From: an uncultured Vicinamibacterales bacterium
Lineage (GTDB): Bacteria; Acidobacteriota; Vicinamibacteria; Vicinamibacterales; JAKQTR01
DNA: 64,000 bases
Reading direction: 5' to 3'
NCBI GenBank assembly: GCA_964372095.1
Contig: CAYJPV010000011.1
Coordinates: 14,252-78,251, forward strand
Both the position numbers and the translations under genes were made by a program. The notes beneath the pieces are model-generated. The model was given only the letters and a program-made list of their open reading frames with translations. It searched no databases and was not told the origin of the DNA. Below are positions 15,697 to 54,357 of this stretch, piece by piece (position 1 is the stretch's first letter; each line of letters begins with the position of its first letter).

Positions 15697-16005
15697 GTTC
15701 GTTGTTCCTCGTTCGTGTGGGTTCCATCACTAGAACCCGGCAGCCGGCCAGTTTATTCCGACTACTTCTGTCCTATTTCATAATTCCGCGTAAACTACTG
15801 ACTCAATATCACTTACTGTTCTCTGTCAAGGAGTCATGCCCTGCGACTTCATGGAACCCACCAACGCAGGGACCCTGAAAGCAGTCGCCCTCGTGCGGTC
15901 TCTTCACCCCGGCTTCGACAGCAGGCTGATTGCGGGGCCGTTCGAAGCCGGCAACGGCTGGGCAGCGGCGTGGTAAGGTGAGGCCCACAACCCGACTCCC
16001 CGGAG

Positions 16006-25296: not shown

Positions 25297-25393
25297 ACCG
25301 GGGCCGGGGATCGGGGACCACCCCGGTGGGCCCCAGCCGCCCGCACACGTGCGGAACCCGCACACGCGGTTTCCGTAAGCGGCCGCGCGCGTA

Positions 25394-25408
25394 TTGCAGT
25401 TTCTGCAA
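25394..25408. promoter_or_regulatory. Perfect inverted repeat TTGCAG-N3-CTGCAA, possible enhancer (UAS) site
   Basis: ttgcagtttctgcaa, about 200 bp upstream of the -24/-12 promoter. Nearby direct repeats CGCACACG at 25341-25369. Confidence 0.3.
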
Positions 25409-25605
25409 CGTCGATCACGATTCCGAGATCGCAGAAAACGCACGCTGTCACGGAACTGGACACATCTGTCGTCCGCGTCCTCCTGCGCAGGCCTGCACGA
25501 CCACCACAATCTCTGGAGTTCTCGCCACGAAGTGCCACAGCCGGCAGTAGCTGCGGCCCGGGTGCTCCTGCACACCGTCTCGCACGCCTGCCTGCGGATG
25601 CACCG

Positions 25606-25621
25606 TGGAACGGCGGTTGCA
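25606..25621 (+). promoter_or_regulatory. Sigma54 (-24/-12) promoter
   Basis: TGGAAC-GGCGG-TTGCA matches TGGCAC-N5-TTGCW with the invariant GG and GC correctly spaced. It lies 28 nt upstream of the radical SAM ATG, with GGAGA in between. An NtrC-type activator gene is adjacent. Confidence 0.6.
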
Positions 25622-25648
25622 GAAAGTGCCAGCGGAGATTTCGTCACG

Positions 25649-27070: not shown

Positions 27071-27071
27071 C

Positions 27072-27170
27072 ATGCGTATCGCCGTCGTAAAGAAAGCTGC
27101 CACCGTCCGTGCCGAATCGCTACCATATTGCCCATGGCTGGTGACAATTCCCCCGGTGCACACGAAGTAG
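27072..27170 (+). CDS. Hypothetical 32-aa peptide, candidate radical SAM substrate: MRIAVVKKAATVRAESLPYCPWLVTIPPVHTK
   Basis: AAGGAG at 27060-27065 lies 6 nt before ATG 27072. It starts 1 nt after the maturase stop. GC is locally lower. It overlaps the annotated start region of the next gene, so one of the two starts may be wrong. Confidence 0.45.
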   Translation: MRIAVVKKAATVRAESLPYCPWLVTIPPVHTK

Positions 27171-28738: not shown

Positions 28739-30504
28739 GAAGCCTGCGAGTGCTGGTCGCCGTGATGCTGGCCACCGCGGCTGTCGTGCCGCTGGTGGTT
28801 TACGGGGTGGTGTCCGTTTACACGCTGCGCGTCGGCATCCGCCGGACCGTGGTGGAAGGCAACGCCAACGTCGCCCGCCAGGTTGGCGAGCAGGTCCGCC
28901 GCTACATCGCGACCAATCTCCAGATCTTCCAGGCGGTCGCCGTCGATGTCGAAGACACCGGCCTCACGGTCGATCAGCAGGACCGCATCCTGAAGGGTTT
29001 CGTGCTGCGTTTCCCTGAGTTCCGCGAACTGACCCTCTACGACGCCGACGGACGGCAACGGGCATCCAGCCGCGTGGGTGCCGCATCCGCACGCCCTGAC
29101 GCGGCGAAGACCAGGCTCGTGATGGGCGTGACCATGACGCCCGTTACGGTGGACGACGACCTGATGCCGGCCACCATCGTGACGAAGGAAATTCGCGATC
29201 AGGGTACGCTGACGGGCACGCTCGTCGGACAGTTCAGCATCGAAGAGTTGTGGCGGATGGTCGACCGGATTCATATCGGGCGGTACGGGGTCGCGCTGAT
29301 CGTGGGCGCGGGCGGCGAACTGCTGGCCCATGGCAACCCGGACGAACGTCCCCGCGTGGCGCGCAGCGAACGGCTCACCCGCCACCCGGCGGTCGTCAGG
29401 ATCCGCGAGGCAGACAGCGACGATCCCGTCGTGGTGGATGCCATCGCAGCCGACGGCAGCACCATGCTTTCGGTCGGCGCCCGCATTCCGGAACTCGACT
29501 GGATCGTGCTGGTCGAGCAGCCGTACTCGGAGGCGTTCGCCCTGGCGCGCCGCCAGGAACGGGAACTGATCGCCGTCATCAGCCTGGCGCTGCTCATCAT
29601 GATTGTCGGCGGCTTCTACTGGGCGCGGACCCTGATCACGCCCATCGAGGCGCTGACGCAGGCCACGCAGGCACTGGCCGACGGTCACCTGGAAGAGCGC
29701 GTGCAGGTGAACGCCGGCGGAGAACTCGGTCAGCTGGGAACGGCGTTCAACTCGATGGCCGACCGCCTGGTGACCTTGCAGGACGACGTGCGCAAGCAGG
29801 AACGACACGCAATGTTCGGACGTGTCGCGGCCGGCCTCGTCCACGACCTCTCGCACCCGTTCAAGAACGTGCATAACAACTGCAAGCTCATCCTGAAGAT
29901 GTACGCCGACCCCGAGTACCGGGAACTGTTCTCACGCACCGTGGAACGCGAGTTCTCGACGATACGCCGGGTCTTCGAAGACCTGCGCAACATCGCCAAG
30001 CCGATGCCCCTCGAGAAGTTCCCGCTCGATCTCAACAAGCTGGTCGGCGAGACGGCCGAGGCGATGCGGGCCAATGCCGACGTGGCGGGACTGGAGTACG
30101 CGACGAACGTCGGCGCCGCCGAGACGTACGTCGCCGGCGACATGTTCGCGATCGGGCGTGTCTGCCGGAACCTGATTATCAACGCGATCGAAGCGACACC
30201 GCCTCAGGGTCGCGTAACCGTCTCGACCGGACTGGGCCAGGGCCGGGCGCGGATCGTCGTCGCCGACACCGGCTGCGGGATTCCGCCCGAACGCCTCGAG
30301 ACGCTGTTCGAGGACTTCTCGACGACCAAGCGGCAGGGACTGGGCCTCGGACTGGCCATCTCACGGAAGATCGTCGAGCAACTGGGTGGGACGATCGCGG
30401 CGGCCAGCGCGCCCGGTACGGGCACGGTGTTCACGGTGGAGTTCCCGGCGGTGGAGCGGCCTCGAACGTCGAGGGAAATCCCGGCGGATGGAGTCGGCGC
30501 GTAA
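28735..30504 (+). CDS. Sensor histidine kinase (TM - periplasmic Cache-like domain - TM - HAMP - HisKA - HATPase)
   Basis: GTG 28735 overlaps the SBP stop (GGTGA) and is preceded by GGAGAG. HAMP ALADGHLEERV ... FNSMADRL. H-box AAGLVHDLSHPF. N box NLIINAIEAT. G boxes DTGCGIP and [13 protein letters not shown]. Confidence 0.9.
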   Translation: MRSLRVLVAVMLATAAVVPLVVYGVVSVYTLRVGIRRTVVEGNANVARQVGEQVRRYIATNLQIFQAVAVDVEDTGLTVDQQDRILKGFVLRFPEFRELTLYDADGRQRASSRVGAASARPDAAKTRLVMGVTMTPVTVDDDLMPATIVTKEIRDQGTLTGTLVGQFSIEELWRMVDRIHIGRYGVALIVGAGGELLAHGNPDERPRVARSERLTRHPAVVRIREADSDDPVVVDAIAADGSTMLSVGARIPELDWIVLVEQPYSEAFALARRQERELIAVISLALLIMIVGGFYWARTLITPIEALTQATQALADGHLEERVQVNAGGELGQLGTAFNSMADRLVTLQDDVRKQERHAMFGRVAAGLVHDLSHPFKNVHNNCKLILKMYADPEYRELFSRTVEREFSTIRRVFEDLRNIAKPMPLEKFPLDLNKLVGETAEAMRANADVAGLEYATNVGAAETYVAGDMFAIGRVCRNLIINAIEATPPQGRVTVSTGLGQGRARIVVADTGCGIPPERLETLFEDFSTTKRQGLGLGLAISRKIVEQLGGTIAAASAPGTGTVFTVEFPAVERPRTSREIPADGVGA

Positions 30505-39032: not shown

Positions 39033-39599
39033 ATGGACGGCACCGACGCTGACGTGGTCGCCCTGGTCCAGCGCGGCAACCACGACGCATTCCGCATTCT
39101 CGTCGAACGGCACAGCCGGGCCGTCTTCCGAGTCGCTTACCGCCTCACGGGGCGGGAAGAAGACGCAGACGACGTGGTCCAGGAGGCGTTTCTGCGGGCG
39201 TTTCGCCAACTCGGGCGCTTCGAATCCCGTTCGAGTTTCGCGACGTGGCTCTACCGGATCGCCTTCAATTGCGCGCACGACCTCCTGCGGCAGCGGCCGA
39301 AACAGGGGTCCCGGGCGTCCCTGGACGACGAGGACGACCGGAGACGCATCGAACTGGCGGACACGTCGCCAGCAGCAGATCCGGCCCAGGTGCTGGCGGC
39401 CCGGCGGCTCAACGTCCGCCTTCGGCAGGCTATGGACGAACTGACCAGCCAGGAACGGGCGGCCTTCGTCATGCGCCATTACGAAGGGTTGTCCATCGAG
39501 GAAATCGGGCGGGCGCTCGACCTCGGGGCCAGCGCAGCCAAACACAGCGTCTTCCGCGCCGTGCGGAAACTGCGGGTGTCGCTGGCCCAGAGTACGTGA
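39033..39599 (+). CDS. ECF-type RNA polymerase sigma factor
   Basis: 188 aa. DADDVVQEAFLRAFRQLGRFESRSSFATWLYRIAFN. Region 4 MRHYEGLSIEEIGRALDLGASAAKHSVFRAVRKL. Confidence 0.9.
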   Translation: MDGTDADVVALVQRGNHDAFRILVERHSRAVFRVAYRLTGREEDADDVVQEAFLRAFRQLGRFESRSSFATWLYRIAFNCAHDLLRQRPKQGSRASLDDEDDRRRIELADTSPAADPAQVLAARRLNVRLRQAMDELTSQERAAFVMRHYEGLSIEEIGRALDLGASAAKHSVFRAVRKLRVSLAQST

Positions 39600-39605
39600 C
39601 CGACC

Positions 39606-39635
39606 GTACGTAGCCCCGGACCTTCAGGTCCGGGG
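39606..39635. repeat. REP-like palindrome (type A)
   Basis: gtacgtagccccggaccttcaggtccgggg. Confidence 0.9.
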
Positions 39636-39653
39636 AAGACAGGCAACGCAACC

Positions 39654-40442
39654 ATGCCACACCCCGAAGACGACGAGCTTGTCATGCATGCCTACGGTGA
39701 AGGAGACGACGCGGCTGCGGTCGAAGCCCACCTCGCGACGTGCGCCGGCTGCAGGGAACGTCTCGCCGATCTGCGGCGGGACCTCTCGACGATGTCGGCC
39801 ATCGAGGTGCCTGAACGCGGCGACGACTACGGGGCGCAGGTGTGGGCGCGCCTTCAGCCGAAGCTCGCCACTGCCGCCCGCCGCCCGGGCGTGGCCGAGT
39901 GGCTGTTCGGCAGCATGCCCTGGCCGCGCCTGGCGCTGGCAGGTGGCGTGGCCGCGCTGGTCCTCGTCGCATTCGTCGCCGGGCGATACACCCAGGCACC
40001 GGCGCCGGCGGCCCCTGCCGTGGCCGAAGCGTCGCCTGCCGTCGTGAAAGAACGGATCCTGCTCGTCGCCGTGGGCGATCACCTGGAACGATCGCGCATG
40101 GTCCTGGCGGAGATCCTGAACCAGCCAGACGCTGACGCCGCCGACCTGATTCCGGAGCAGGCAGCGGCCGAGGACCTGGTCGCAACCAACCGGCTCTATC
40201 GCCAGACAGCGCTCGAGAGCGGTCACCCAGCGATGGCGTCGACACTGGAAGAACTCGAACGTGTCCTCGTGGAGATCGCCAACGGCCGCGACACGGCGAC
40301 CACCAGCGACCTCACCAGGTTGCGGGAACGGATTGAATCACAGGGACTGATTTTCAAAGTCACGGTTCTCGGCACGCAGGTTCGCCAGCGGCAGCGGGAT
40401 GTCTCCGCAGCGCCGGCAACCGGTTCGAAATCGTCGACGTAA
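39654..40442 (+). CDS. Anti-sigma factor (zf-HC2 N-terminus, one TM helix)
   Basis: The HLATCAGCRERLADL motif, the TM helix LALAGGVAALVLVAFVAG, and its position directly after the ECF sigma gene. Confidence 0.75.
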   Translation: MPHPEDDELVMHAYGEGDDAAAVEAHLATCAGCRERLADLRRDLSTMSAIEVPERGDDYGAQVWARLQPKLATAARRPGVAEWLFGSMPWPRLALAGGVAALVLVAFVAGRYTQAPAPAAPAVAEASPAVVKERILLVAVGDHLERSRMVLAEILNQPDADAADLIPEQAAAEDLVATNRLYRQTALESGHPAMASTLEELERVLVEIANGRDTATTSDLTRLRERIESQGLIFKVTVLGTQVRQRQRDVSAAPATGSKSST

Positions 40443-40445
40443 CGG

Positions 40446-41897
40446 ATGGATGCCATGCACACACTGACTCGAATCACGTTGTCTGCCCTGCTCTGCGGGG
40501 CGCTCGGCGCAACCGCCTGGGCGCAGACCGCGCCGGTCGCTCCCGTCAGACCGGCCGCCCCGGTGGCACCCGTCGCGCCCGTCCTGGCCGAGACTCTGGC
40601 GTACGAAGCCGCCGCATTGGCCGACACCCACCTCGCGATCGAAGCGGAAGCCCTCGCGCTCGCCCGGGTTGCTGCCGGAACGATGGCGTTCGCGGACCAG
40701 GACCAGAGCGCCAAAGAACGGGAAGCACAGCGGACCCGCGAACTGGCCGCACGGGAGCAGGAGCGTGCGGCCCGGGACGCATCCCGCGACCGCTCGCTGT
40801 ACTCGAGGGGAACCGCCGCGCTCGACGCGGGCCGTTGGAGCCGGGCCGTCGAAGCGTTCGCGGCTGCCGCCGAACTGAAAGGCTCGCGAGCGGACGGCGC
40901 CCTCTACTGGAAGGCGTACGCCGAGTACAAGCTGGCACAGAAGGCCGCCGCCCTGGCCACCCTGCAGCAACTCAAGGCAGCCTACCCCGAAAGCCCCTGG
41001 CTGAAAGAAAGCCGCGCGCTCGAAGTCGAGATGTCGGGTTCGGCGGCGGCGACGGAAGCGACGGCGTCTGACGAAGAGCTGAAACTGCTGGCCATCAACG
41101 GGTTGATGCGCGTGGAAGACGAGCGGGCCATCCCGATGCTCGAGAAGATCCTGACCTCGCAGCAGTCGCCCCAGCTGAAGAAACGCGCGCTGTTCGTCCT
41201 GTCCCAGAGCAAGTCACCGAAAGCGCGCGACGCCGTGCTGGGCATCGCCAAGGGCGCGTCCAATCCGGACCTGCAACTGGAGGCGCTGCGGTACGTGGCG
41301 ATGTTCGGCGGGACGCAGAACCTGCAGGTCCTCAGCGACATCTACACATCCTCGAAGGACGTGGACGTCAAGCGGCGCATCCTCGAGGCCTACATGATCG
41401 GCGGGCAGCGGGAGCTGGTGCTGAACGCGGCCCGGTCGGAATCCGACAGTGCCCTTCGCGCGCAGGCCGTGCGGCTGCTGGGCGCGATGCGCGCGACAGC
41501 CGAACTCGACAAGCTCTATCAGGCCGAGTCGTCGGCCGAGGTCAAGCGAGCCGTCATCGAAGCCTACATGGCCGGCGGCGACGCCGAACGCCTCGCCCAC
41601 GTGGCTCAGAACGACAAGGACGCCGCCATGAGGCTCCGTGCCATCGAGATGCTGGGCGCGCTGGGCCGCGGCAAGAACACCGCGGTCATGACCGGCCTCT
41701 ACTACGCCGACGGCCAGAACAACGACGCAAAACGCGCCGTGATCAACGGTCTCTTCATGGCGGGCGACGCAACGACGCTCATCGACATCGCGCGCAAAGA
41801 AACGGATCCCGCGTTGCGCAAGTCACTCGTGGAACGCCTCAGCCTCATGAAGTCCAAGGAAGCCACGGACTTTCTGATGGAGATCATCAACAAGTAG
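40446..41897 (+). CDS. Secreted HEAT/TPR-repeat protein
   Basis: Signal peptide ITLSALLCGALGATAWAQ. Repeated units such as VRLLGAMR, AIEMLGAL and A..AL... of PBS-lyase HEAT type. Confidence 0.75.
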   Translation: MDAMHTLTRITLSALLCGALGATAWAQTAPVAPVRPAAPVAPVAPVLAETLAYEAAALADTHLAIEAEALALARVAAGTMAFADQDQSAKEREAQRTRELAAREQERAARDASRDRSLYSRGTAALDAGRWSRAVEAFAAAAELKGSRADGALYWKAYAEYKLAQKAAALATLQQLKAAYPESPWLKESRALEVEMSGSAAATEATASDEELKLLAINGLMRVEDERAIPMLEKILTSQQSPQLKKRALFVLSQSKSPKARDAVLGIAKGASNPDLQLEALRYVAMFGGTQNLQVLSDIYTSSKDVDVKRRILEAYMIGGQRELVLNAARSESDSALRAQAVRLLGAMRATAELDKLYQAESSAEVKRAVIEAYMAGGDAERLAHVAQNDKDAAMRLRAIEMLGALGRGKNTAVMTGLYYADGQNNDAKRAVINGLFMAGDATTLIDIARKETDPALRKSLVERLSLMKSKEATDFLMEIINK

Positions 41898-42002
41898 GGA
41901 CTAGGGACAAGGGACAAGGGACAGGAGGCGAGGGGCGCGGGGGTTGCCCCTTGCCCCTTGCCCCTTGACCCTAGTCCCACGCCCCACGCCCCACGCCCCA
42001 CG
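41897..42002. repeat. Composite heptamer arrays (GGGACAA)n / (CCCCTTG)n / (CCCCACG)n
   Basis: gggactagggacaagggacaagggaca ... ccccttgccccttgccccttg ... cacgccccacgccccacgccccacgg. Confidence 0.9.
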
Positions 42003-42013
42003 GAGAGGTGTCT

Positions 42014-43093
42014 ATGAAACGCACGACAACCGTGCTCTCGCTTGCGGTGTGCCTGCTGGCGGCCGCATCGGCTCCCGCCATCGCGCAGCCGCACCTCGTC
42101 AACGGGTCCGTCACGACGCGGGCCTCCGGGGGCAGCCTGGGCGCCGACCTGTCCGCCATCGCTGCCCGGGAAGGCGGCGTCCTCTGGGTGGGTTACGGCG
42201 TGCCGGCGAACAAAGCCGGCCAGGACGTCTGCTGCCATGAGTACCGCGGCAACGCGCCGGTCTCGGAGGGCTGCCGCCTGGAGAGGGGCGCCGACCACGC
42301 CGGGCGGGCCGGCACGGACGCGGGCAAGGCGCGCCTCGAGCCGTCGACCGAACTCGCCGTCTTCGTCCGATTCGAAGGCGGCGTGTTCAGCCGGGCGGCG
42401 GCATTCTCGCAGGATTGTGAGATCGATGCCGGAGGCACTCGGGTGATATGGCTGAACGGCGTGAAGCCGGCGGACAGCCTGGCCTGGCTGACGGACCGGG
42501 CCAGGAAGGAGACCGGTGACACACGCGGCCGGGACGGCGTGATCATGGCCGTGGCGTTTCACGCGGATGGCGGAGCGGACCGCGCGCTCGAGGACCTGGC
42601 CTTGTCGGGGCCGTCACGCAAGGTCCAGCAGTCGGCCGTGTTCTGGATGGGGGCCGCGCGCGGCGCGGCGGGATTCGGCGGGCTCAAGCGGGCCCTGGCC
42701 CAGGTGACCGACGTCAAACTCCGCGAGCAGGTTGTGTTTGCCGTGTCCGTGAGCAAGGAAGCCGGCGCGCTCGACCTGTTGCTGGACGTGGCCCGCAACG
42801 ACCGCCAGCCACAGGTGCGCGGGCAGGCGTTGTTCTGGCTCGGTCAGAAAGCCGGCGCGCGGGTGGCCGACACGATTGTTGGTGCCCTGCAGAACGACCC
42901 GGACATCGAGGTGAAGAAACGTGCGGTCTTCGCGCTGAGCCAGTTGCCCAAAGACGAGGGCATCCCGAAGCTGATCGAAATCGCCCGCACGAACAAGAAC
43001 CCCGAGGTCCGCAAGCAGGCGATGTTCTGGCTCGGCCAGTCCAAGGATCCGCGGGCACTCACCTTCTTCGAGGGGATTCTCTCCGGGAAGTAG
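42014..43093 (+). CDS. Secreted protein with C-terminal HEAT repeats
   Basis: ATG 42014 after GGAGAGG. Signal peptide LSLAVCLLAAASAPAIAQ. C-terminal repeats VRGQALFWLGQ, KKRAVFALSQL, VRKQAMFWLGQ. Confidence 0.75.
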   Translation: MKRTTTVLSLAVCLLAAASAPAIAQPHLVNGSVTTRASGGSLGADLSAIAAREGGVLWVGYGVPANKAGQDVCCHEYRGNAPVSEGCRLERGADHAGRAGTDAGKARLEPSTELAVFVRFEGGVFSRAAAFSQDCEIDAGGTRVIWLNGVKPADSLAWLTDRARKETGDTRGRDGVIMAVAFHADGGADRALEDLALSGPSRKVQQSAVFWMGAARGAAGFGGLKRALAQVTDVKLREQVVFAVSVSKEAGALDLLLDVARNDRQPQVRGQALFWLGQKAGARVADTIVGALQNDPDIEVKKRAVFALSQLPKDEGIPKLIEIARTNKNPEVRKQAMFWLGQSKDPRALTFFEGILSGK

Positions 43094-45339: not shown

Positions 45340-46767
45340 TCACCGTTCGGGTCCCGGAATCTCGCGATACCCGCTGCCATCCCATCGCAACACCGGCCAC
45401 AACTGCCCGGCGTCCAGCTTCGCGTCGAATGGACGGTCGAGCAGGCCCCGCTTGTGCCACTCGTTGTGCACAACCGGGTACTGCGAGAAGAACTCCGCAG
45501 AATAAACCTTCATCGACTGGTCGAGCGAATATTGAGTCACACCCTGGCGGTGAGCACCGGACAGGAAGAGTTCGCCATGAAGCACACTCACCGTCAATCT
45601 ACCGTTGGCGTCCTGGTCCGCACTGGTGACCATCGCATGCCCACCTGAGGTCGTCTTCAGGATGTCCGTCGCCGGAAACACGAAGAAGTGCTCCGGCAAC
45701 GGCCCGGGACAGTTCAGGCACCGGTACCGTGGCTTCACGGCAGGCGACAACCCACCAAACCGGATACGGTCTAGTACCGCGAGCGACCCGCCGCCGGTCT
45801 CGTTGTGCGGGGCACCCACCAGCACGTACTTCCGGTCTCCGGCTTCGGCAAACGACACGGACGAGATGCGGCCGCTGCTCCAGTACTGTCCAAGTTCACG
45901 ACCCGTCGCGTCCAGTTTCACGAGGACCGACGGGAACCACACCTGGTGGTCGAAGACCGGCCACACGTAGGGTGTGCCGTCGGCCTCGCGCAAGACGAAC
46001 ACCCCCACCGTGTACACGAGTTTCCCGGAGTACTGGTCGTCTCCATACTTCACGTGCTGCGGAGGGAGGTACTCCCACAGTTTCTCGCCATCCGGCGAGA
46101 AGCAGGACAATGTCCCACTGTTCAGCGGGCCTTCGTGGCGTGCAACGAACAGAACTTCGTTCCGGCCGTCCCCATCGAGATCGACAAACCGGACCAGCTT
46201 GAAGGCTCTTGGGGCAGGACTTACCGAGGCGTCATCTCCGCGGACCACCCGGCCCTCGTCTGCCACCTCGAGGTAGGCGCGTTCCCTCAGGCCTTCTGGG
46301 AAAGGCTTGTTCCACAACTCGCGACCATCTTCGCCGAAGACGAACAGCGTGTCATCGGCGACCCGGTACTTCGCAGGCTGGCCGGCAGTGCTGCGTGTCC
46401 ACGCGACGATGGCGGCGATGGCGAGGAGGGCAAAGAGGCCCAGCGCGACGGCGACGATGAATGAGGCCGGGCGGCGGCGGGCCGTTTCGTCGACGGCGTC
46501 GGTCGCATCGCTGCCGGCCTCAGCGCCGGATTCCTGCGTGTCTCCGTTGCCGCTGGCATCGCGCGCGGCGGCACGGCGCCGCCAGGCGTCCAGTTCGGAG
46601 CGGAAGGCGAAGACGTTTTCTCCCTCCCGGCCGCTGGGTTTGTGGACAGGCAGGCCCAGCTCGTTCCTCCAGCGCTGTGCGGTCCGCACCGACTTACCGA
46701 GGTAGTCGGCAACGGCCTTCCAGCCGTCAAGGAGATCGGGGTCGGAGGGACCTGGGGTCTCTGGCAT
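45340..46767 (-). CDS. Membrane-anchored protein: N-terminal excisionase/MerR-like HTH, TM helix, extracytoplasmic beta-rich (FG-GAP-like) domain
   Basis: LDGWKAVADYLGKSVRTAQRWRNELGLPVHK. TM helix FIVAVALGLFALLAIAAIVAW. VDLDGDGRNEVLFV. Function unknown. Confidence 0.7.
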   Translation of the reverse strand: MPETPGPSDPDLLDGWKAVADYLGKSVRTAQRWRNELGLPVHKPSGREGENVFAFRSELDAWRRRAAARDASGNGDTQESGAEAGSDATDAVDETARRRPASFIVAVALGLFALLAIAAIVAWTRSTAGQPAKYRVADDTLFVFGEDGRELWNKPFPEGLRERAYLEVADEGRVVRGDDASVSPAPRAFKLVRFVDLDGDGRNEVLFVARHEGPLNSGTLSCFSPDGEKLWEYLPPQHVKYGDDQYSGKLVYTVGVFVLREADGTPYVWPVFDHQVWFPSVLVKLDATGRELGQYWSSGRISSVSFAEAGDRKYVLVGAPHNETGGGSLAVLDRIRFGGLSPAVKPRYRCLNCPGPLPEHFFVFPATDILKTTSGGHAMVTSADQDANGRLTVSVLHGELFLSGAHRQGVTQYSLDQSMKVYSAEFFSQYPVVHNEWHKRGLLDRPFDAKLDAGQLWPVLRWDGSGYREIPGPER

Positions 46768-46937
46768 GCACGGTCACCGTCGGAATCGGCCCCATTCTAC
46801 ACCGGGGACGGTACCAACCTTGCTCCTCGCGAAGTGCGCGGCTGGTCTCGGGTCGGCAATCGCGCGGCGTTTTGCGGGGGCGCCTTCCGCAGTACGCAGT
46901 TCCGTCCACACGCCCCCGACGCGAACGGTGGCAGAAA

Positions 46938-49472
46938 TTGCGATCTCCCTTTTCTCCCGGCGACACCGTGTGCGCACGGGGCCGCGCCTGGCACCTGCGC
47001 GGTGTCACAGAACATGACGACTGTGTAGCGCTGGACCTGACGCCTCACCCCGGAGTCTCCCTGGGGGAACCTCTGGTGCTGCTGCATCCGTTCGACCGCG
47101 TGGCTCCGGACGCCGCGCCCCGCCGCACGGCCGCGGCTTCGCGACGGGTCTTCTGGCGGTCCCTTGCCCGCCGCACGCTCTCCCTCCGTGGGTACGACAC
47201 CCTTCTGGCCCCGGCAGCGGCAACCATCGACATTCTTCCCTACCAGCTCGAACCCGTCATCGCTGCGGTCCTGCACCGTGTCCCTCGCGTGCTCCTGGCC
47301 GACGCCGTCGGCCTGGGCAAGACGATTCAGGCCGGCCTCATCACCGCCGAGTTCTTCGCCCGCGGTGAAGCCGCCAGGGCCCTGGTGCTCGTGCCGCCCG
47401 CCCTGCGCGACCAATGGGCGGCGGAGCTGCGCGGGCGATTCGACATCGAGGCCGACGTGATCGACGCCGGCGCGCTCCGCGCACTGGGCTCGGGGGCTCC
47501 AGCCACGGTCAACCCGTGGTGCATCCCCCGTGTGGCCATCGTGTCCATCGACTTCGCGAAGCGCCCTGAGGTGTGTCACGCCCTTGCCGACGCCCCGTGG
47601 GACGTGGTCATCATCGACGAGGCGCACACCGTGACCCTCGACACGGAACGCCACCGCGCCACGCACCACATCGCCAGCCGCGCCAGCCGGGTGATCCTGC
47701 TGACGGCGACGCCCCACTCCGGCGACGCGTCCCAGTTCGCTGCCCTCACGGCCCTCGGCGCGGCCACGCCCGCGGAGCCGATCGCGATGTTCAGGCGGTC
47801 ACGATCGGATGCCGGCTTCAGCGTCTCGCGGCGGTCGCACCTGCTGCGCGTACGCCTGTCCAGGGCCGAAGCCCGTGCGCTCACGCTCGTCCTGGCCTAC
47901 CTGCGCGAGTTGTGGACAGCCGCCTCCAGTCGCCGAGACGCGGAAGCACGGCTCGTGGCCACCGTGCTCCTCAAACGCGCGCTCTCGACACCGGCCTCCC
48001 TGGCCCGGTCCATCGAGCGGCGCCGCTCACTGCTGGACGCCGGGGCCCTGCCCTCCGAACAACAGTTGGCGCTTCCGCTCGACGACATGGATGACGCCGA
48101 CGACGAACCGGGGCACGTACTGGCGGCACCGGGACTCGACCACCGCGACGGCGAGAGGGCCTGGCTCGATCAGATCGCGGCATCCCTGACACACGTCCAC
48201 GGGTCCAGCAAAGTCCGTGCGGTCGAACGCCTCGTGCGGCGGGCGCGTGAACCGATCATTGTCTACACCGAGTATCGCGATACGCTGCGGGAACTCGAGG
48301 ACACACTGGGGCGGGCCGCCCGGGTAGCCACGCTGCACGGCGGGCTCGATCAGGCGCAGCGCCGTTTGGCCCTCGATCGGTTTGCGGACGGCCGGGCCGA
48401 CGCGCTCCTCGCCACAGACGCGGGCGGCGCGGGTCTCAACCTGCAGAGCCGCTGCCGTCTGGTGGTGAACCTTGAATTGCCGTGGAACCCCGTCCGGCTC
48501 GAACAGCGAGCCGGGCGCGTGGATCGCATCGGACAGACACGCACGGTGCACACCGTCCACCTTGTCGCCCGGGCCACGCCAGAGGAACGAGTACTGGCTC
48601 GGCTGGTCAGGCGTTCAAGACAGGCGAACGCGGCGCTGTCGGACACCGCCGCGGCAACTCTGACCGAGCCTCGCTACGACGAGTCTCAGGCGGCTGAGGT
48701 ATGCCTCGGACTGCGGCCTCCCCGAACGTTGTGGGTTCCGGCGCCTGACCGCGCGGCGCCGGACGCGGCGGGAAAGGTCCGCGTGCACCGGCCGGCGCTG
48801 GAGGCCGACGGGAGGCGCCACGCCCTCGCACAGATCGGCCGGCGCCGCCTGGCCGACGCGTTGCCCCGGCACCGGACCGCCTCGAAGCAGGCACCCGACC
48901 GCACCGCGCCGTATCTGCGCATCCGCGCCGGCCGGTCGGATCGCCGCCGCGGGGCCGGCCTGCTCGTCTCCGGGACAGGCACCCGTGCCCTCGCCGTCTT
49001 TGAACTTCAGATCGTGGACGAACGCCGCCATCTGGTCGACGAACATCTGATCGTCCTGCTGGTCCGTGTGTCGTGGCTGACGACGCATGCCGTGCTGGCC
49101 CATCAGGCAAGCCTGCTGCGAATCGCCACGATGCTCGGCCGGCACCCTCTGGTGCGCGACGTGCTCGACACGGAAGCCAGGCGGAGACTGGCGGTGGTTC
49201 GTTACCACATCGATTCGGCGGGCAGTGCGCTCGCGACCCGACGACAGGCGCTGGCGAAACAATCACAGGAACGCGCTCTCGAGGGCGGACCTTATCAGGC
49301 CGGCTTGTTCGACCGGCGCGCGGAGCGGGAGGCGGCACGGACAACAGCCGGTCCGATCGCCGGCCAGTTGTCTCAGTTCGGGTTTCCGCTCTGGCCCGGA
49401 GGCGACCCGGGGGGCCTTGTCTTGGCTCACCCGCCACGATTGCGCTGGCTCTGGTGGCCGGGATGCCCATAG
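46938..49472 (+). CDS. SNF2-family (SF2) helicase-like ATPase with a ~300-aa uncharacterised C-terminal region
   Basis: ORF 46461..49472. Start provisionally TTG 46938 (uncertain). YQLEPV, ADAVGLGKTIQAG (motif I, 47310-47324), VIIDEAHTV (DEAH, 47615-47626), LLATDAGGAGLNLQ, ELPWNPVRLEQRAGRVDRIGQ (motif VI). Confidence 0.85.
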   Translation: MRSPFSPGDTVCARGRAWHLRGVTEHDDCVALDLTPHPGVSLGEPLVLLHPFDRVAPDAAPRRTAAASRRVFWRSLARRTLSLRGYDTLLAPAAATIDILPYQLEPVIAAVLHRVPRVLLADAVGLGKTIQAGLITAEFFARGEAARALVLVPPALRDQWAAELRGRFDIEADVIDAGALRALGSGAPATVNPWCIPRVAIVSIDFAKRPEVCHALADAPWDVVIIDEAHTVTLDTERHRATHHIASRASRVILLTATPHSGDASQFAALTALGAATPAEPIAMFRRSRSDAGFSVSRRSHLLRVRLSRAEARALTLVLAYLRELWTAASSRRDAEARLVATVLLKRALSTPASLARSIERRRSLLDAGALPSEQQLALPLDDMDDADDEPGHVLAAPGLDHRDGERAWLDQIAASLTHVHGSSKVRAVERLVRRAREPIIVYTEYRDTLRELEDTLGRAARVATLHGGLDQAQRRLALDRFADGRADALLATDAGGAGLNLQSRCRLVVNLELPWNPVRLEQRAGRVDRIGQTRTVHTVHLVARATPEERVLARLVRRSRQANAALSDTAAATLTEPRYDESQAAEVCLGLRPPRTLWVPAPDRAAPDAAGKVRVHRPALEADGRRHALAQIGRRRLADALPRHRTASKQAPDRTAPYLRIRAGRSDRRRGAGLLVSGTGTRALAVFELQIVDERRHLVDEHLIVLLVRVSWLTTHAVLAHQASLLRIATMLGRHPLVRDVLDTEARRRLAVVRYHIDSAGSALATRRQALAKQSQERALEGGPYQAGLFDRRAEREAARTTAGPIAGQLSQFGFPLWPGGDPGGLVLAHPPRLRWLWWPGCP

Positions 49473-52400
49473 GACCGGTTTCAGGACCTGCATGTGCGGC
49501 CTCTCTGCGACCGCGAGAACGGGTTTTGAAACCGCCTGACGAGGTGCGGGCGCCCCTCGTTGGCGGCATGCGCGGTGCACTGGTGTCGGGTTGGTACACC
49601 AGCCAGAGGCTGGGCGTGGAGTTCGAAGACGAAATCGGAACCGAGACACGCGCGCGCGGCCGTCGCGAGTTCTGTGCGTGGTGGCGGGCGAACGGCTGCC
49701 GCCTGGGCCCGGCATCGAGCCTCAGGATGGTCTGCGACGCGGGGGCAAGCCCGCTCCTTGAGATTCTGGGCCTCCGCTGGTCGCCGCCGCGTATCCAGTC
49801 CGCGGTGCCGTTCGCCGTGGCTCCCGCCGAAGGACCTGCCGGGCCCATCCCGGTCGTCGTCACGACGTGGGGCGCAGGCCTCGACCGGCACTTCTCCCGG
49901 GCCGCAGGAACGGCACATCACGCGCGCGGCCCGTGGCTGCTTGGTTTCGACGGCCGGGTACTCCGACTCTGGGACGCGCGGCGCGGGTGGGCCCGCGCGT
50001 TTGTGGAGTTCGACATCGAGACCGCGTATCACGACGAACGGACATTCGTGGTCGTCTGGGCTCTGGTGCGAGCCGAGGCGCTGGCAGCCTCGACCGCCCG
50101 CATCGCGGAGGCATCCGCCCGTCATGGAACAGCCGTGTGCGCCTCCCTGCGGGACGGCGTCCGCGAGGCGCTCACCTTGTTCGTCACGGGATTCACAAAA
50201 CACGGGACCACACGAAGGACACGCGCGGCCGACGGAACCGCCGCGTTCGAGCAGTCGCTGACGCTGATCTACCGCCTTCTCTTCCTGCTCTTCGCCGAGT
50301 CTCGCGGGCTGATGCCTGCGTGGCACCGCACCTACCGCCGCTCCTACTCCGTCGAAGCCCTCCGGATCCGGGCCGAACGCCCGGGCCCGCACACAGGAAT
50401 CTGGGCGTCGCTCCAGGCCATGTCGAGAATGGCCCACGATGGCTGTCACGCCGGAACCCTGGTCGTCACCCCGTTCAACGGCCGGCTGTTCTCGCCCTCG
50501 CGCGCGCCGCTTGCCGAGGCTGCCTGCCTGGACGATGACCTGGTCGCGCGGGCCGTGCTGGCGATCACGACGGCACAGGTGCCGCACGGACGCGAGCGAA
50601 TCGCGTTCTCCGACCTGGGGGTCGAACAACTGGGCGCCATCTACGAGAGCGTGCTCGACTACGAACTCGTGCCCGCCCCGACATCGGGCCGGCCGCTGGC
50701 CGGATCACGGCAGGCAGACCGCACGGCGGCCCTCCAGGGCACCGGCATCCGCCGCAAGGCCACGGGCACGTTCTACACGCCGCGTGAGATGACCGACTAC
50801 CTGGTTCGTCGCGCCCTCGAACCGCTCGTCGCGGGGCGCACGGCGGACGGCATCCTGCGCATCACGGTGCTCGACCCGGCCATGGGCAGCGGCGCGTTCC
50901 TCGTAGCTGCCTGTCACTATCTGGCCGCCGCGTACGAAGACGCGCTCGTCCAGGAACGCGGCCTGCTGCCCGGCGACGTGACGGACGACGACCGGGCGCA
51001 CTACCGCCGCCTGGTTGCACAACGGTGCCTCTACGGCGTCGATCTGAACCCGATGGCCGTCCAGGTGGCCCGGCTCTCGATGTGGCTCGCCACGCTCGCG
51101 GCGTCGAAGCCGCTGACGTTTCTCGATCACCACCTGTCGGTCGGCAACAGCCTCGTGGGCGCCAGCCTGGACGCCGTCGCCAGCCGGCCGCCTGGCGGTC
51201 GCACACGCCAGCGGCGGCCGGGCCAACTCCCCCTGTTCGCAGCCTCGGAGGTCGAGCCGGCCCTCACGCGGGCCCTGCCTCTGCGCACCGGCCTGGCGTT
51301 CATGCCTGACGACCACGTCTCGGTGGTTCGCGACAAAGAACGGGCCCTCGCGTCCCTGCGCAGTACGGACCACGGACTCGGCCTCTGGCGGCGCCTCGCG
51401 GATCTCTGGTGTGCGGGATGGTTCTGGGACGCACCCGCAGGCCCGACACCTGCCGCGGGCGTGTTTGCCGAGATGGCTGCCGCGCTCCGCGGCGGTCCGG
51501 TTACGCTGCCAGCCGGTGCGCTCCACGATCTGCTCGGTCACGCACGGCGCATCGCTGACGGTCTGCGGTGTTTTCACTGGACGCTGGAGTTTCCCGAGGT
51601 CTTCTACGACACGGCTGGCACACCGCGCGCGGATGCCGGTTTCGACGCCGTGATCACCAACCCGCCGTGGGACATGGTGCGTGCCGACCTTGGTTCGTCC
51701 GAGTGCCGTACGCAGACCCGCGCGCACGGCACGAGACTCGTCGCCTTCGCGAGGCAGTCGGGCACGTACACGCTTGCGGAAACCGGCCAGGCGAATCTCT
51801 ACCAGCTGTTCGTCGAACGATGCCTGTCATTGACGAAACCAGGAGGCCGCGTCGGCCTGATCGTACCCTGGGGACTTGCGTCGGATCGCGGCAGCGACGC
51901 CTTGCGCGCGGCGTTGATCGACCGGTGCGCGCTCGACACGCTCGTGGGATTCGAGAACACGCACGGCGTCTTCCCGATCCACAGGGGTGTGCGCTTCCTG
52001 CTGCTCTCGGCTTCGCCCGGTCCCTCGACGCGGCAGGTCACATGCCGATTCGGCGTGCATCACCTGAGCGACCTGGAGGCCGGGCAGGACGTCCCGGAGT
52101 GTGTCACCCTGACGCCGGGCCTGCTCCAGGCGTTGTCCGGCCCCGCACGAGCGTTCCCGTACGTCAGGACCCGCGCGGACCTCAGGATTCTCGAACGGCT
52201 CGGGGCACAGTTTCCGGCCCTCGCGTCCCCGCGCGGCTGGGGCCTCCGATTCGGGCGCGAACTGAACGCCAGCGACGACAGGCCCCTCATGGCCCGGGGC
52301 GGCCCCGGGCTTCCCGTCGTCGAGGGCAAACACATCACGCCCTTCAGGGTCGTGGTCGAACCGGGCGGCCTGCGCGTACCGGACCGGGAACGACTCCGGA

Positions 52401-52951
52401 CGGACACGCTGCGCCGGGCGGTGATGACGTGGCGGCTGGCATACCGGGACGTCACGGGGCCGACCAACCAGTGGACCCTGATTGCCGCCCTGATTCCGCC
52501 CGGGCACGTCACCGTACACACCGTGCTGTGCCTCAAGTCGCCGATGGCCCTGCAGGTGCAGGCGTATCTGTGCGCGGTGCTCAACAGCGTCGTCGCGAAC
52601 TTCCTGACGCGTCTGTGGGTGACGACCCACGTCGGCGCTGGCGTCATGGCTCGACTGCCTGCGCCTCGGCTGGATGAGTACGACCCCGAATTCGTCGCGG
52701 TCGCCAGCCTGGCGCTCGCCCTTCGAGACGACCCGCCCGACCGGTCCGAATGCGCCGCCAGGCTCCAGGTCCGCATGGCCCGCCTGTACGGCCTCACCCG
52801 CGAGGAGTTCGTTCACGTGCTCGAGGCGTTCCCGCTCGTGGCCGACGATTTCGCACGCGGGTGTCTCGATGAATGGGACACGCCGCCACCCTGTCTCAAG
52901 CCAGCCGTTGACGGACAACGCCGCCGGCGATACCCTCGCGACGAGACCTGA
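49463..52951 (+). CDS. Large Eco57I/TaqI-like gamma-class N6-adenine DNA methyltransferase with N-terminal and C-terminal (TRD-like) extensions
   Basis: ATG 49463 overlaps the helicase stop by 10 nt (alternative ATG 49568). GTFYTPREMTDYL (50771-), VLDPAMGSGAFLVAA (AdoMet motif I), YGVDLNPMAVQVARLSMWL, AVITNPPWDMV (NPPW, 51659-51670). Confidence 0.85.
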   Translation: MPIGPVSGPACAASLRPRERVLKPPDEVRAPLVGGMRGALVSGWYTSQRLGVEFEDEIGTETRARGRREFCAWWRANGCRLGPASSLRMVCDAGASPLLEILGLRWSPPRIQSAVPFAVAPAEGPAGPIPVVVTTWGAGLDRHFSRAAGTAHHARGPWLLGFDGRVLRLWDARRGWARAFVEFDIETAYHDERTFVVVWALVRAEALAASTARIAEASARHGTAVCASLRDGVREALTLFVTGFTKHGTTRRTRAADGTAAFEQSLTLIYRLLFLLFAESRGLMPAWHRTYRRSYSVEALRIRAERPGPHTGIWASLQAMSRMAHDGCHAGTLVVTPFNGRLFSPSRAPLAEAACLDDDLVARAVLAITTAQVPHGRERIAFSDLGVEQLGAIYESVLDYELVPAPTSGRPLAGSRQADRTAALQGTGIRRKATGTFYTPREMTDYLVRRALEPLVAGRTADGILRITVLDPAMGSGAFLVAACHYLAAAYEDALVQERGLLPGDVTDDDRAHYRRLVAQRCLYGVDLNPMAVQVARLSMWLATLAASKPLTFLDHHLSVGNSLVGASLDAVASRPPGGRTRQRRPGQLPLFAASEVEPALTRALPLRTGLAFMPDDHVSVVRDKERALASLRSTDHGLGLWRRLADLWCAGWFWDAPAGPTPAAGVFAEMAAALRGGPVTLPAGALHDLLGHARRIADGLRCFHWTLEFPEVFYDTAGTPRADAGFDAVITNPPWDMVRADLGSSECRTQTRAHGTRLVAFARQSGTYTLAETGQANLYQLFVERCLSLTKPGGRVGLIVPWGLASDRGSDALRAALIDRCALDTLVGFENTHGVFPIHRGVRFLLLSASPGPSTRQVTCRFGVHHLSDLEAGQDVPECVTLTPGLLQALSGPARAFPYVRTRADLRILERLGAQFPALASPRGWGLRFGRELNASDDRPLMARGGPGLPVVEGKHITPFRVVVEPGGLRVPDRERLRTDTLRRAVMTWRLAYRDVTGPTNQWTLIAALIPPGHVTVHTVLCLKSPMALQVQAYLCAVLNSVVANFLTRLWVTTHVGAGVMARLPAPRLDEYDPEFVAVASLALALRDDPPDRSECAARLQVRMARLYGLTREEFVHVLEAFPLVADDFARGCLDEWDTPPPCLKPAVDGQRRRRYPRDET

Positions 52952-52956
52952 CGTTC

Positions 52957-54357
52957 GTGATTCGACGTATCGCCCAGCCCGCCGGCCGGCTTGCCTGCAC
53001 ACTCACGCTGCTGATCGCCTGGGCGGCTTGGCCGGGCACCCCCCTGTCCAGTGACGCAGCGCAGCCGCCGGCCGACCTGGTCATTCGCCACGTGCGGGTC
53101 GTCCACGGCGACGGCCGCGTCACGCCGGATGCGACGGTCATCGTGCGGGCCGGCCACGTCGAGACCATTCTGACCGGCACGGCACTGCGAGGTTCGGCCG
53201 GCAACCTTCCATCTCGCGCGAGCATTGACGGAACGGGCAGGACCCTGCTGCCGGGTCTGATTGACGCCCACGTGCGGCTCGAGCCCTGGATGCTGCCGCG
53301 TTTCTTCGCGCTGGGGGTCACCACAGTACGGGATCTGCACACCACCAGTGACGACATCTTCCGGCTCGCCGCCACCGACCAGCGCACGCACCCCTTCATC
53401 ATCGCGTCCGGCCCGACGATCGACGCACCGGGCAGCAGTGCCGGACAGACGATCCCCGTCGACACCGTCGGTGAGGCCCGTGCCGCCGTCAGGCTCCTCG
53501 TCAACTCCGGAGCGCGAGTCATTTCGGTGTCGCCCCGTCTCGGACCAGTCATGCTGTCGGTGGTCGTGTCGGATGCACGGGCGAGAGGTGTGCCCGTGGC
53601 GGCCCGCCTGGGCGCCACGACGGCGACGCAGGCGGCTGACGCTGGCGTGACGTCCATCGAACAGGTGAGCGGCGTTGTCGAGGCGGCCAGCACCGATGCC
53701 TCGGCCCTCGTCGCCGCGCACGCAAACCCTGCGGCAGGCTGGACAGCCGCCCAACTGGGATGGCGGCGGCTGACGCTGCAGCGACTCGAAGACGTGGCAC
53801 GCGAACTGGCGGAAAAGGGTGTGGTACTCGTCCCGACCCTGGCGTGGCATGAGGCCATCTTCCGCCTCGCAGACGCGGACATCGCCAGCCATCCCGACCT
53901 TGCGCACGTGCCCGACGGGCTACCCTCCCGTGCATGGAAGCCAGCCGACGTCATGGCACGCGCCGGCTGGACACCGCAGACGTTGTCGCAATTCAGGCAG
54001 GCGTTCCCGATCCTGCAGCAGTTCGTCGCCACCTTCTCGAGAGTGGGCGGCCGTGTCGTGACCGGCACCGGCACCGGCCAGCCGTATGTCGTGCCTGGCA
54101 CCAGCCTGCACCGCGAACTCGAACTGCTGGTCGCGTGCGGACTGTCCCCGGGTCAGGCCATCAAGGCCGCCACCGCCGACGCAGCCGACCTGCTTGGCGT
54201 GAAAGACCGGTCCGGCACGATTGACCCGGGCAGAGCAGCGGACTTCGTCCTCGTCGACGGCAACCCGCTCACCGACATCCGCCACACGCGGCGCATCGTC
54301 GCTGTCTTCAGGGACGGAATCTCACTGGGGGCTGGGGCAGTAGACAGTAGACAGTAG
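52957..54357 (+). CDS. Secreted amidohydrolase-family protein
   Basis: GTG start. Signal-like LACTLTLLIAWAAWPG. LPGLIDAHVRLEP. C-terminal GTIDPGRAADFVLVDGNPLTDI. The last codons and TAG stop lie inside the (GTAGACA)n array. Confidence 0.85.
   Translation: MIRRIAQPAGRLACTLTLLIAWAAWPGTPLSSDAAQPPADLVIRHVRVVHGDGRVTPDATVIVRAGHVETILTGTALRGSAGNLPSRASIDGTGRTLLPGLIDAHVRLEPWMLPRFFALGVTTVRDLHTTSDDIFRLAATDQRTHPFIIASGPTIDAPGSSAGQTIPVDTVGEARAAVRLLVNSGARVISVSPRLGPVMLSVVVSDARARGVPVAARLGATTATQAADAGVTSIEQVSGVVEAASTDASALVAAHANPAAGWTAAQLGWRRLTLQRLEDVARELAEKGVVLVPTLAWHEAIFRLADADIASHPDLAHVPDGLPSRAWKPADVMARAGWTPQTLSQFRQAFPILQQFVATFSRVGGRVVTGTGTGQPYVVPGTSLHRELELLVACGLSPGQAIKAATADAADLLGVKDRSGTIDPGRAADFVLVDGNPLTDIRHTRRIVAVFRDGISLGAGAVDSRQ

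Follow-up and report, generated by a model that had tools for sequence, protein, structure and literature searches.

A DrmD/DrmMI-like SNF2 ATPase and adenine methylase gene pair without a linked effector in Vicinamibacterales

Related systems and the gene pair

To our knowledge, pairs of an SNF2-family ATPase and a PglX-like methylase have so far been described only in defence systems (class 1 DISARM, ARMADA, and BREX-related systems), in which they stand beside a YprA-type helicase or a nuclease. Here, such a gene pair was analyzed in a 64,000-nucleotide (64-kb) stretch of contig CAYJPV010000011.1 from an uncultured Vicinamibacterales bacterium (hereinafter referred to as the window, to which all coordinates refer). 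What is new here is a DrmD/DrmMI-like (ArmA/ArmB-like) module that is effector-less and fixed in a lineage.

In class 1 DISARM (Serratia sp. SCBI; Ofir 2018; Aparicio-Maldonado 2021), an SNF2 gene immediately precedes the gene for a large N6-adenine methylase, in the same orientation. This drmD-drmMI gene order has been described together with the formation of N6-methyladenine (m6A) at a non-palindromic site by Serratia DrmMI (bioRxiv 10.1101/2021.12.28.474362). The gene order ArmA-ArmB has been reported for ARMADA, where both proteins are essential for defence (bioRxiv 10.1101/2025.09.15.676423). In the window, two co-oriented genes were confirmed by the map of open reading frames (ORFs), preceded by an intergenic region:

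46768..46937, no strand: presumed operon promoter region, intergenic between a divergent gene for a helix-turn-helix (HTH) membrane protein and the SNF2 gene
46938..49472, + strand: SNF2-family (RapA/DrmD/BrxHII-like) ATPase gene, 844 aa (Pfam, PADLOC DrmD)
49463..52951, + strand: PglX/DrmMI-like N6-adenine DNA methyltransferase gene of type IIG architecture, 1162 aa (Pfam, PADLOC DrmMI)

All motifs cited in an earlier reading made from the letters alone (the sequence-only reading) were present in these ORFs, namely GLGKT (aa 125-129), DEAH (aa 227-230), QRAGRVDRIGQ (aa 523-533), and QAGLFDRR (aa 787-794) in the SNF2 protein, and FYTP (aa 437-440), DPAMGSGAFL (aa 471-480), and NPPW (aa 733-736) in the methylase. 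Pfam matches included SNF2-rel_dom (9e-11) and Helicase_C (1e-21) for the former, and Eco57I (1.8e-22), N6_Mtase (1e-16), and MmeI_Mtase (2.5e-8) for the latter. The top PADLOC matches were DrmD (6e-70) and DrmMI (3.3e-104), in accordance with the kinship to class 1 DISARM proposed in that reading, and lower-ranked PADLOC matches for the pair were BrxHI/II, HmaA, DpdE, and type IIG enzymes. The curated NCBIfam cut-offs were not reached: the SNF2 protein scored 262.7 bits with the equivalog model DISARM_DrmD (NF038317; cut-off 610), to which the ATPase core alone aligned, and 173.6 bits with the RapA model (cut-off 576), while no model reached its cut-off on the methylase (PglX models, 49 bits or less vs. 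400-900). Thus, neither protein is an equivalog of the named defence proteins; on profile similarity, they belong to the RapA/DrmD/BrxHII-like and PglX/DrmMI-like superfamilies.

The pair shares with class 1 DISARM its gene order and orientation, but it is not accompanied by the DrmA/DrmB/DrmC core triplet in the same cluster, its SNF2 C-terminal domain is lineage-specific, and its DrmD score is below the NCBIfam cut-off. Further, a patchy, horizontally transferred island location is a test feature of DISARM, whereas the pair lies outside a defence island and is vertically inherited. A BrxHII/RapA-like SNF2 protein, a PglX-like methylase, and a homologous methylase N-terminal domain are shared with ARMADA types I and II; unlike in those systems, neither a YprA-like ArmC (none in 75-80 related loci) nor a GajB-like ArmD accompanies the pair, and the SNF2 C-termini are unrelated. 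Compared with BREX, the PglX scores are far too low and PglZ, BrxC, and BrxL are missing from the window. For Hma (HmaA helicase, HmaB methylase, HmaC ATPase), HmaA matched the SNF2 protein at 5.5e-60, but HmaB was not among the top 25 methylase matches and no ATPase gene is adjacent.

Type ISP enzymes (LlaGI, LlaBIII) likewise join a superfamily 2 ATP motor to a gamma-class adenine methylase and a target-recognition region (TRD) acting on an asymmetric site. In these enzymes, one polypeptide carries all of these parts and an Mrr-like nuclease N-terminal to the helicase, whereas here two separate ORFs encode two proteins, the motor is of SNF2 type, and no active nuclease signature is present; the combined ORF and Pfam scan found no nuclease domain in the SNF2 protein. 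The earlier suggestion of a Type ISP derivative amounts to a functional analogy. The order of nuclease-like N-terminal domain, helical linker, gamma-class methylase, and own TRD is that of type IIG/IIL enzymes (MmeI, DrdV, Eco57I), but the methylase lacks their D...ExK signature and is paired with an SNF2 motor, and at the sequence level it did not match MmeI or DrdV in the PDB. The orphan methylases Dam and CcrM resemble it as clade-wide, syntenic methylases under purifying selection with no cognate nuclease, although the methylase families are unrelated. Finally, SNF2-coupled maintenance methylation in eukaryotes (Dnmt5, DDM1/HELLS, PCNA-bound DNMT1) also couples an ATP motor to methylation, for which Dnmt5 is a precedent, but these methylases are unrelated and make 5-methylcytosine. 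A literature search yielded nothing relevant on a Vicinamibacterales methylase.

Conservation of the pair and absence of effector genes

Pfam and PADLOC analyses of the 64-kb window identified no gene for DrmA, DrmB (DUF1998), DrmC (phospholipase D family, PLD), a YprA-type helicase, HNH, Mrr, or another recognizable nuclease, and neither BREX genes (PglZ, BrxC, BrxL) nor an integrase gene was found in it. The absence of DISARM and BREX partners and of a nuclease gene from the surroundings, noted earlier, was thus borne out, as was the identity of the flanks (S9 peptidase, HTH membrane protein, and amidohydrolase by Pfam). All sizeable ORFs of the window had metabolic, proteolytic, or signalling Pfam assignments. 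They encode S9, M14, M1, and M24 peptidases, amidohydrolases, ApbA, HEAT-repeat proteins, an extracytoplasmic function (ECF) sigma factor, histidine kinases, a Ser/Thr kinase, a radical S-adenosylmethionine (radical-SAM) protein, a 2-oxoacid dehydrogenase E2 subunit, and a squalene/phytoene synthase. The GC content of the window was approximately 67% without a compositional break at the locus, the GC content at third codon positions (GC3) of the pair (0.81-0.82) was within the range of the flanks (0.78-0.85), and the sole tRNA gene was located more than 30 kb away, which agrees with the earlier statement that no integrase, tRNA, or compositional shift marks an island.

Related loci were collected from GTDB contigs with one genome per species, and the best 80 were inspected. 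At least 561 loci encode a methylase relative, a figure that counts loci carrying the methylase and not the share of Vicinamibacterales genomes, and the best 80 were almost all metagenome-assembled genomes (MAGs) of Vicinamibacterales. Among protein sequences, more than 3900 methylase homologues were found; the best 120 were all full length with 47-91% identity, and those named by source were labelled Acidobacteriota or Vicinamibacterales. In tblastn searches with the window proteins, the SNF2 gene was directly upstream of the methylase gene in 75 of the 75 loci with upstream DNA, and many loci shared an M14/S9 peptidase upstream and ApbA and an amidohydrolase downstream. In 75-80 of these loci, DrmA/B/C, YprA, PLD, HNH, and Mrr were absent among the recurrent neighbours within 10 kb of the pair. 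The recurrent flanking families of the 80 loci, defined by ORF clustering and Pfam, were all metabolic, signalling, or pilus genes, including TauE, rhodanese, NrfD/Fer4, molybdopterin oxidoreductase, aldehyde dehydrogenase, secretin/RcpC, and kinases. The 7-kb inserts found between the methylase and ApbA in some loci were considered as a possible site of DrmA/B/C and rejected; they encode NrfD/Fer4, molybdopterin oxidoreductase, TauE, and rhodanese. Full Vicinamibacterales-type pairs were also carried by contigs labelled as Betaproteobacteria and Acidimicrobiia MAGs (L047 and L070, the latter with typical flanks as well), which suggests that these contigs are mis-binned.

The two genes are tightly joined. 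The methylase ATG at 49463 overlaps the SNF2 ORF, which runs from TTG 46938 to the stop TAG 49470-49472, by 10 nt, and the same 10-nt ATG overlap was present in the close relative L084 (81% identical). From SNF2 stop to methylase start, the median distance in the 75 related loci was 4 nt, and a 4-nt overlap was seen in 15 of them. Because of the shared overlap and these short gaps, the tight operon can be regarded as a family trait. The overlap described in the sequence-only reading is real in the sequence and shared by L084, but its use as the methylase start is uncertain. Family conservation begins only at about aa 32, and a gene caller applied to an identical public contig chose TTG 49526, giving 1141 aa and a 53-nt gap; GTG 49544 and ATG 49568 are further possible starts. 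Since public gene calls begin at TTG 49526, the 1162-aa methylase had no exact match among them. The same caller began the SNF2 gene at GTG 46968 (834 aa), although homologue alignments begin at residue 1, which makes TTG 46938 a no less suitable start. A scan of 46768..46937 gave no match to the sigma-70 consensus, which is not informative in Acidobacteriota, and the promoter and terminator scan of the locus was uninformative.

The close relative L084 was fully syntenic over 20 kb. Relative to it, the synonymous divergence (dS) and the ratio of nonsynonymous to synonymous divergence (dN/dS) were 0.73 and 0.21 for the SNF2 gene and 0.63 and 0.18 for the methylase gene, compared with 0.49-0.91 and 0.08-0.30 for eight flanking genes. 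In pairwise comparisons, methylase divergence tracked SNF2 divergence (Pearson 0.86), and its correlation with flank divergence was 0.41-0.78, with low Spearman values for ApbA and one amidohydrolase. At sequence divergences of 43-56%, nearly all loci retained intact ORFs of the pair. Together, synteny, flank-like dS, purifying selection, the conserved TRD, and native composition indicate that the pair is not an island; it is a long-resident, functional, and vertically inherited operon with stable specificity rather than an arms-race island. The sequence-only reading had described an orphan, defence-like module and proposed examining its phyletic patchiness. The pattern obtained was vertical, with the pair at one syntenic site across Vicinamibacterales and the SNF2 gene upstream throughout, and the description as a patchy island module was not upheld.

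The same data bear on whether the locus is what is left, in decay and without function, of an earlier DISARM/ARMADA island. In line with such a remnant, effector genes are missing, and the SNF2 reading frames are frameshifted in L015, L022, L033, and L066. All four are MFD-labelled MAGs, and their frameshifts could be sequencing or assembly errors or occasional pseudogenization. With dN/dS of 0.18-0.21, catalytic motifs invariant in more than 100 homologues, and ORFs intact in nearly all loci, decay is scarcely credible, and this reading is rejected on the first two of these observations.

Searches against plasmids revealed only distant relatives of the methylase (26-33% identity by tblastn). 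In seven of the seven annotated cases (Thermus, Allomeiothermus, Chroococcidiopsis, Euhalothece, Chlorohelix, Agrobacterium, and Acidithiobacillus), an SNF2 "helicase-related protein" and the methylase were encoded next to a 1680-1840-aa DEAD/DEAH helicase, and frequent neighbours included 3'-5' exonuclease, HNH, and toxin-antitoxin genes, integrases, insertion sequence elements, and CRISPR. This arrangement, seen in contexts that were mobile or defensive, is the one reported for ARMADA and class 1 DISARM. Since all seven relatives adjoin the giant helicase, the Vicinamibacterales pair appears to represent a reduced state, that is, a modification half without the effector half. It seems about as likely as not that the pair corresponds to the modifying half of a class 1 DISARM/ARMADA-type system that was fixed in the chromosome of the Vicinamibacterales ancestor without a helicase-nuclease effector of the YprA/DrmAB type.

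As the main alternative, the pair may still act against phages or plasmids, either as a minimal, nuclease-free BREX-like form, in which the methylase would mark self DNA and the SNF2-methylase complex would block replication of unmethylated invader DNA, or as a DISARM/ARMADA-like half with an unlinked effector. The annotated plasmid relatives all lie in defence contexts, but every relative examined has a YprA-like partner next to the pair, whereas no effector, PglZ, BrxC, BrxL, or YprA gene was present in the window or, for 75-80 species, in the 10 kb around the pair. The closest profiles are those of defence proteins (DrmD, DrmMI, BrxHI/II, HmaA), ArmA and ArmB are essential in ARMADA, and deletion of drmD and drmMI weakens protection of Serratia against one phage (bioRxiv 10.1101/2021.12.28.474362). 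On the other hand, the chromosomal site is fixed and syntenic with metabolic flanks. Faster evolution of the pair than of its flanks would also suit a defence role, but the TRD is conserved and selection is purifying, not diversifying; armB, by contrast, is the variable gene among E. coli ARMADA II loci. On balance, a present defence function is possible but rather unlikely.

Protein domains and neighbouring genes

The following parts were delimited in the two proteins:

47199..48641, + strand: SNF2 ATPase core (aa 88-568), the stretch matched by the PADLOC and NCBIfam DrmD profiles
48750..49469, + strand: lineage-specific SNF2 C-terminal domain (C-domain; aa 605-844), from the AlphaFold2 (AF2) model
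49296..49319, + strand: invariant peptide Q-A-G-L-F-D-R-R (aa 787-794), from the homologue alignment
49556..50128, + strand: methylase N-terminal domain (N-domain; aa 32-222), restriction-endonuclease-like fold without ExK, from the AF2 model and HHalign
50129..50752, + strand: helical linker domain (aa 223-430) with motifs LFLLFAESRGL and FNGRLF, from invariant alignment columns and the PADLOC DrmMI profile PDLC02642 (aa 224-417)
50753..51982, + strand: gamma-class methyltransferase catalytic domain (aa 431-840) with FYTP, DPAMGSGAF (motif I), and NPPW (motif IV), from the invariant motifs
51983..52852, + strand: C-terminal TRD (aa 841-1130), from profile similarity

In the SNF2 protein, Walker A, Walker B, and motif VI were invariant in 106-107 of 107 homologues. 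The ATPase core had a median identity of 48% in 75 loci and a dN/dS of 0.13 relative to L084; Pfam at E values up to 10 gave nothing for the N-terminus. RapA was the nearest solved (PDB) relative (1.4e-36). This similarity, the 173.6-bit score with the NCBIfam RapA model, and the fact that Serratia DrmMI methylates alone would fit an SNF2 protein that is chiefly a RapA-like transcription or repair factor, with an orphan regulatory methylase sharing its operon and no link between motor and methylation. However, the RapA score is far below the 576-bit cut-off, the genes adjoin each other in all 75 informative loci and are closely spaced or overlap, the divergence of both proteins is strongly correlated (r 0.86), and the same pairing recurs in DISARM and ARMADA, so that two unconnected functions seem quite improbable.

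The methylase carries FYTP, motif I, and NPPW in the gamma order, and these were invariant in 120-121 of 121 homologues. A search of its profile against PDB sequences yielded just weak matches of the catalytic domain (CamA, BsaXI). The TRD side resembled Alw26I/Eco31I/Esp3I-family methylases (TIGR02987, aa 724-1122) and PADLOC MTase_II (aa 908-1124). In the 80 loci, median identity was 54% for the catalytic domain, 45% for the TRD, in which many residues were invariant, and 34% for the N-domain; dN/dS relative to L084 was 0.12, 0.18, and 0.19, respectively.

For the N-domain, which had no Pfam match at E values up to 10, AF2 gave a confident alpha/beta model, with a predicted local distance difference test score (pLDDT) of 91.5. 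Its best Foldseek neighbour in the PDB was the N-terminal nuclease domain of DrdV (type IIL), a match that was not significant (E 0.27, TM 0.40). The strand PIPVVVTTW contained no conserved Glu or Lys, and the family alignment contained no conserved Lys in aa 32-222; for these reasons, the canonical PD-(D/E)xK signature is regarded as absent. Conserved charged residues were E60, R63, R88, R168, D171, R178, E/D182, D184, R203, and H221. Thus, the earlier proposal of a degenerate nuclease-like fold held as regards the restriction-endonuclease-like model, with its weak DrdV match, and the missing ExK and lysine, but not as regards the acidic residues, as D171, E/D182, and D184 are conserved. At the sensitivity of HMMER, the N-domain profile defined a compact family, with 597 clusters at 50% identity in 1.84 billion proteins. 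Homology of the N-domain to its counterparts in ARMADA-like plasmid methylases was indicated by HHalign (probability 88%, E 3e-6); because these share it, its degeneracy characterizes the family and did not arise by decay in this lineage.

The SNF2 C-domain (~240 aa) was poorly conserved, with a dN/dS of 0.35 relative to L084. The AF2 model (mean pLDDT 69, core 84-92) showed a helix, a three-stranded sheet, a long helix, an exposed motif loop, and a terminal strand; Foldseek found no fold match in the PDB, and Pfam gave no match at E values up to 10. A likeness to the C-terminus of the Thermus ARMADA-like SNF2 protein, suspected by eye, was ruled out by HHalign (probability 0.07%), which detected no similarity to ARMADA-like SNF2 C-termini. 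In seven related Vicinamibacterales loci (L031, L043, L049, L052, L059, L063, and L075), the C-domain was encoded separately, by an ORF of ~195 aa that follows the SNF2 gene, precedes the methylase gene, and is read in a different frame, which gives a three-gene operon and indicates that the C-domain is an autonomous module. In plasmid relatives, the slot between the two genes was occupied by unrelated small genes (NYN, PIN/VapC-Phd, and a four-helix-bundle protein).

Within this domain, the QxGLFDxR peptide lies ~56 aa before the C-terminus in a loop of low pLDDT in the AF2 model. Its family consensus was [LPA][VI]QxGLFD(R)RA[EL], with Q, L, and F present in 107 of 107 homologues and G and R794 in 105 of 107. 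The bacterial beta-clamp-binding pentapeptide has the form Qxx[LM]F or QL[SD]LF, and in its letters QxGLF fits such a sliding-clamp-binding motif. A clamp-motif-like peptide was also observed 70-80 aa past motif VI in eight of nine ARMADA-like plasmid SNF2 proteins (L086-L094), in the forms QASLF, QLSLL, QLTLF, QLAFDF, QLGFDF, and QLSLNF, and a single archaeal homologue (Natribaculum) had a PIP-box-like QRTLGQFA at the equivalent place after motif VI. As the RapA alignment ends at motif VI, it cannot tell whether the QLxLF linker is structural. No literature was found that links a clamp-binding motif to SNF2, restriction-modification, or DISARM/ARMADA-type systems. One conceivable, though unlikely, consequence is that the pair is a replication-coupled maintenance methylation machine, in which the QxGLF(D) peptide would tether the motor and the methylase to the beta clamp behind the fork, and the mark would be restored without delay on fresh, unmethylated copies of an asymmetric site. 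The pair would then be a bacterial analogue of PCNA-bound DNMT1 or SNF2-coupled Dnmt5, and its defence relatives may possess such a device as well. Docking of the peptide onto the methylase N-domain would be an equally simple alternative.

Several neighbouring genes were also recorded. The divergent gene upstream of the pair (45340-46767, - strand) encodes a 475-aa protein whose N-terminus matches the HTH family HTH_17 of Pfam weakly, below the cut-off. The protein is fast-evolving (64% amino acid identity and dN/dS 0.30 relative to L084), was found just in close relatives, and lies outside the conserved pair. Downstream, an amidohydrolase gene (52957-54357, + strand) begins 5 nt past the methylase stop and may therefore be co-transcribed in this genome; an amidohydrolase occupied this position in few related loci (L001, L003, L004, L048, and L084). 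The block at 39033-43093 (+ strand) contains an ECF-type sigma-70 gene, a 262-aa ORF, and genes for two HEAT-repeat proteins, and it was kept upstream in close and in some distant relatives (HEAT1/HEAT2 matches in L006, L007, L020, L028, and L035). A row at 25379-30504 (+ strand) encodes a radical-SAM protein, an SBP_bac_5 solute-binding protein, and a Cache-HAMP histidine kinase; a radical-SAM family recurred in 10 related loci (e.g., L014) and a Cache-HAMP kinase family in 15 (e.g., L010). The tRNA gene, tRNA-Pro (cgg) at 15213-15288 (+ strand), is unrelated to the pair; it is enclosed by an ORF of high GC3 on the other strand (15043-15726), which is spurious.

Proposed role of the pair

The explanation we favour, with a confidence about midway between doubt and acceptance, is that the pair constitutes an ATP-coupled module for m6A methylation of the host genome and does not perform autonomous restriction. 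The two genes would be co-transcribed and probably translationally coupled, and their products would form a complex, for which the SNF2 C-domain and its QxGLFDxR peptide may serve as an adaptor. The TRD is expected to read one conserved, probably asymmetric, recognition sequence, at which the methylase would place an N6-methyl group on adenine of host DNA, so that the mark would probably lie on one strand. The SNF2 motor may spend ATP on moving along or remodelling DNA so that sites are found and modified, and no cleavage step would follow. The output would be a lineage-wide epigenetic mark. Like those of Dam and CcrM, it could serve in self-marking, in replication or repair, or in regulating genes. 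As a killing component is missing and the pair is inherited at a single chromosomal site throughout the order, it resembles a domesticated machine for marking DNA more than a mobile defence island.

Several points weigh against this explanation. Serratia DrmMI methylates without DrmD (bioRxiv 10.1101/2021.12.28.474362), and for that reason the SNF2 motor may not be required for methylation. It is possible that an effector is encoded elsewhere in the genome, beyond the 64-kb window and the 10-kb flanks. The conserved acidic cluster retained in the methylase N-domain may provide a non-canonical catalytic activity. Vertical inheritance does not exclude a defence role, the distribution is given as a number of loci and not as a fraction of Vicinamibacterales genomes, and the pair evolves faster than most of its flanks (mean pairwise distance 0.50-0.60 vs. 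0.24-0.48).

If the clamp-like peptide is real, it would bear on how one-strand marks at asymmetric sites survive replication, and a clamp device, if true, would explain the upkeep of such marks at non-palindromic sites in DISARM, ARMADA, and BREX-type systems. Vicinamibacterales, an abundant soil order, kept the pair alone at one site through 43-56% protein divergence. This makes it a clear candidate for a defence modification module domesticated into a host epigenetic system, and a natural experiment on the use of an SNF2 motor to a methylase without an effector. Domestication of this kind predicts an m6A motif shared across Vicinamibacterales.

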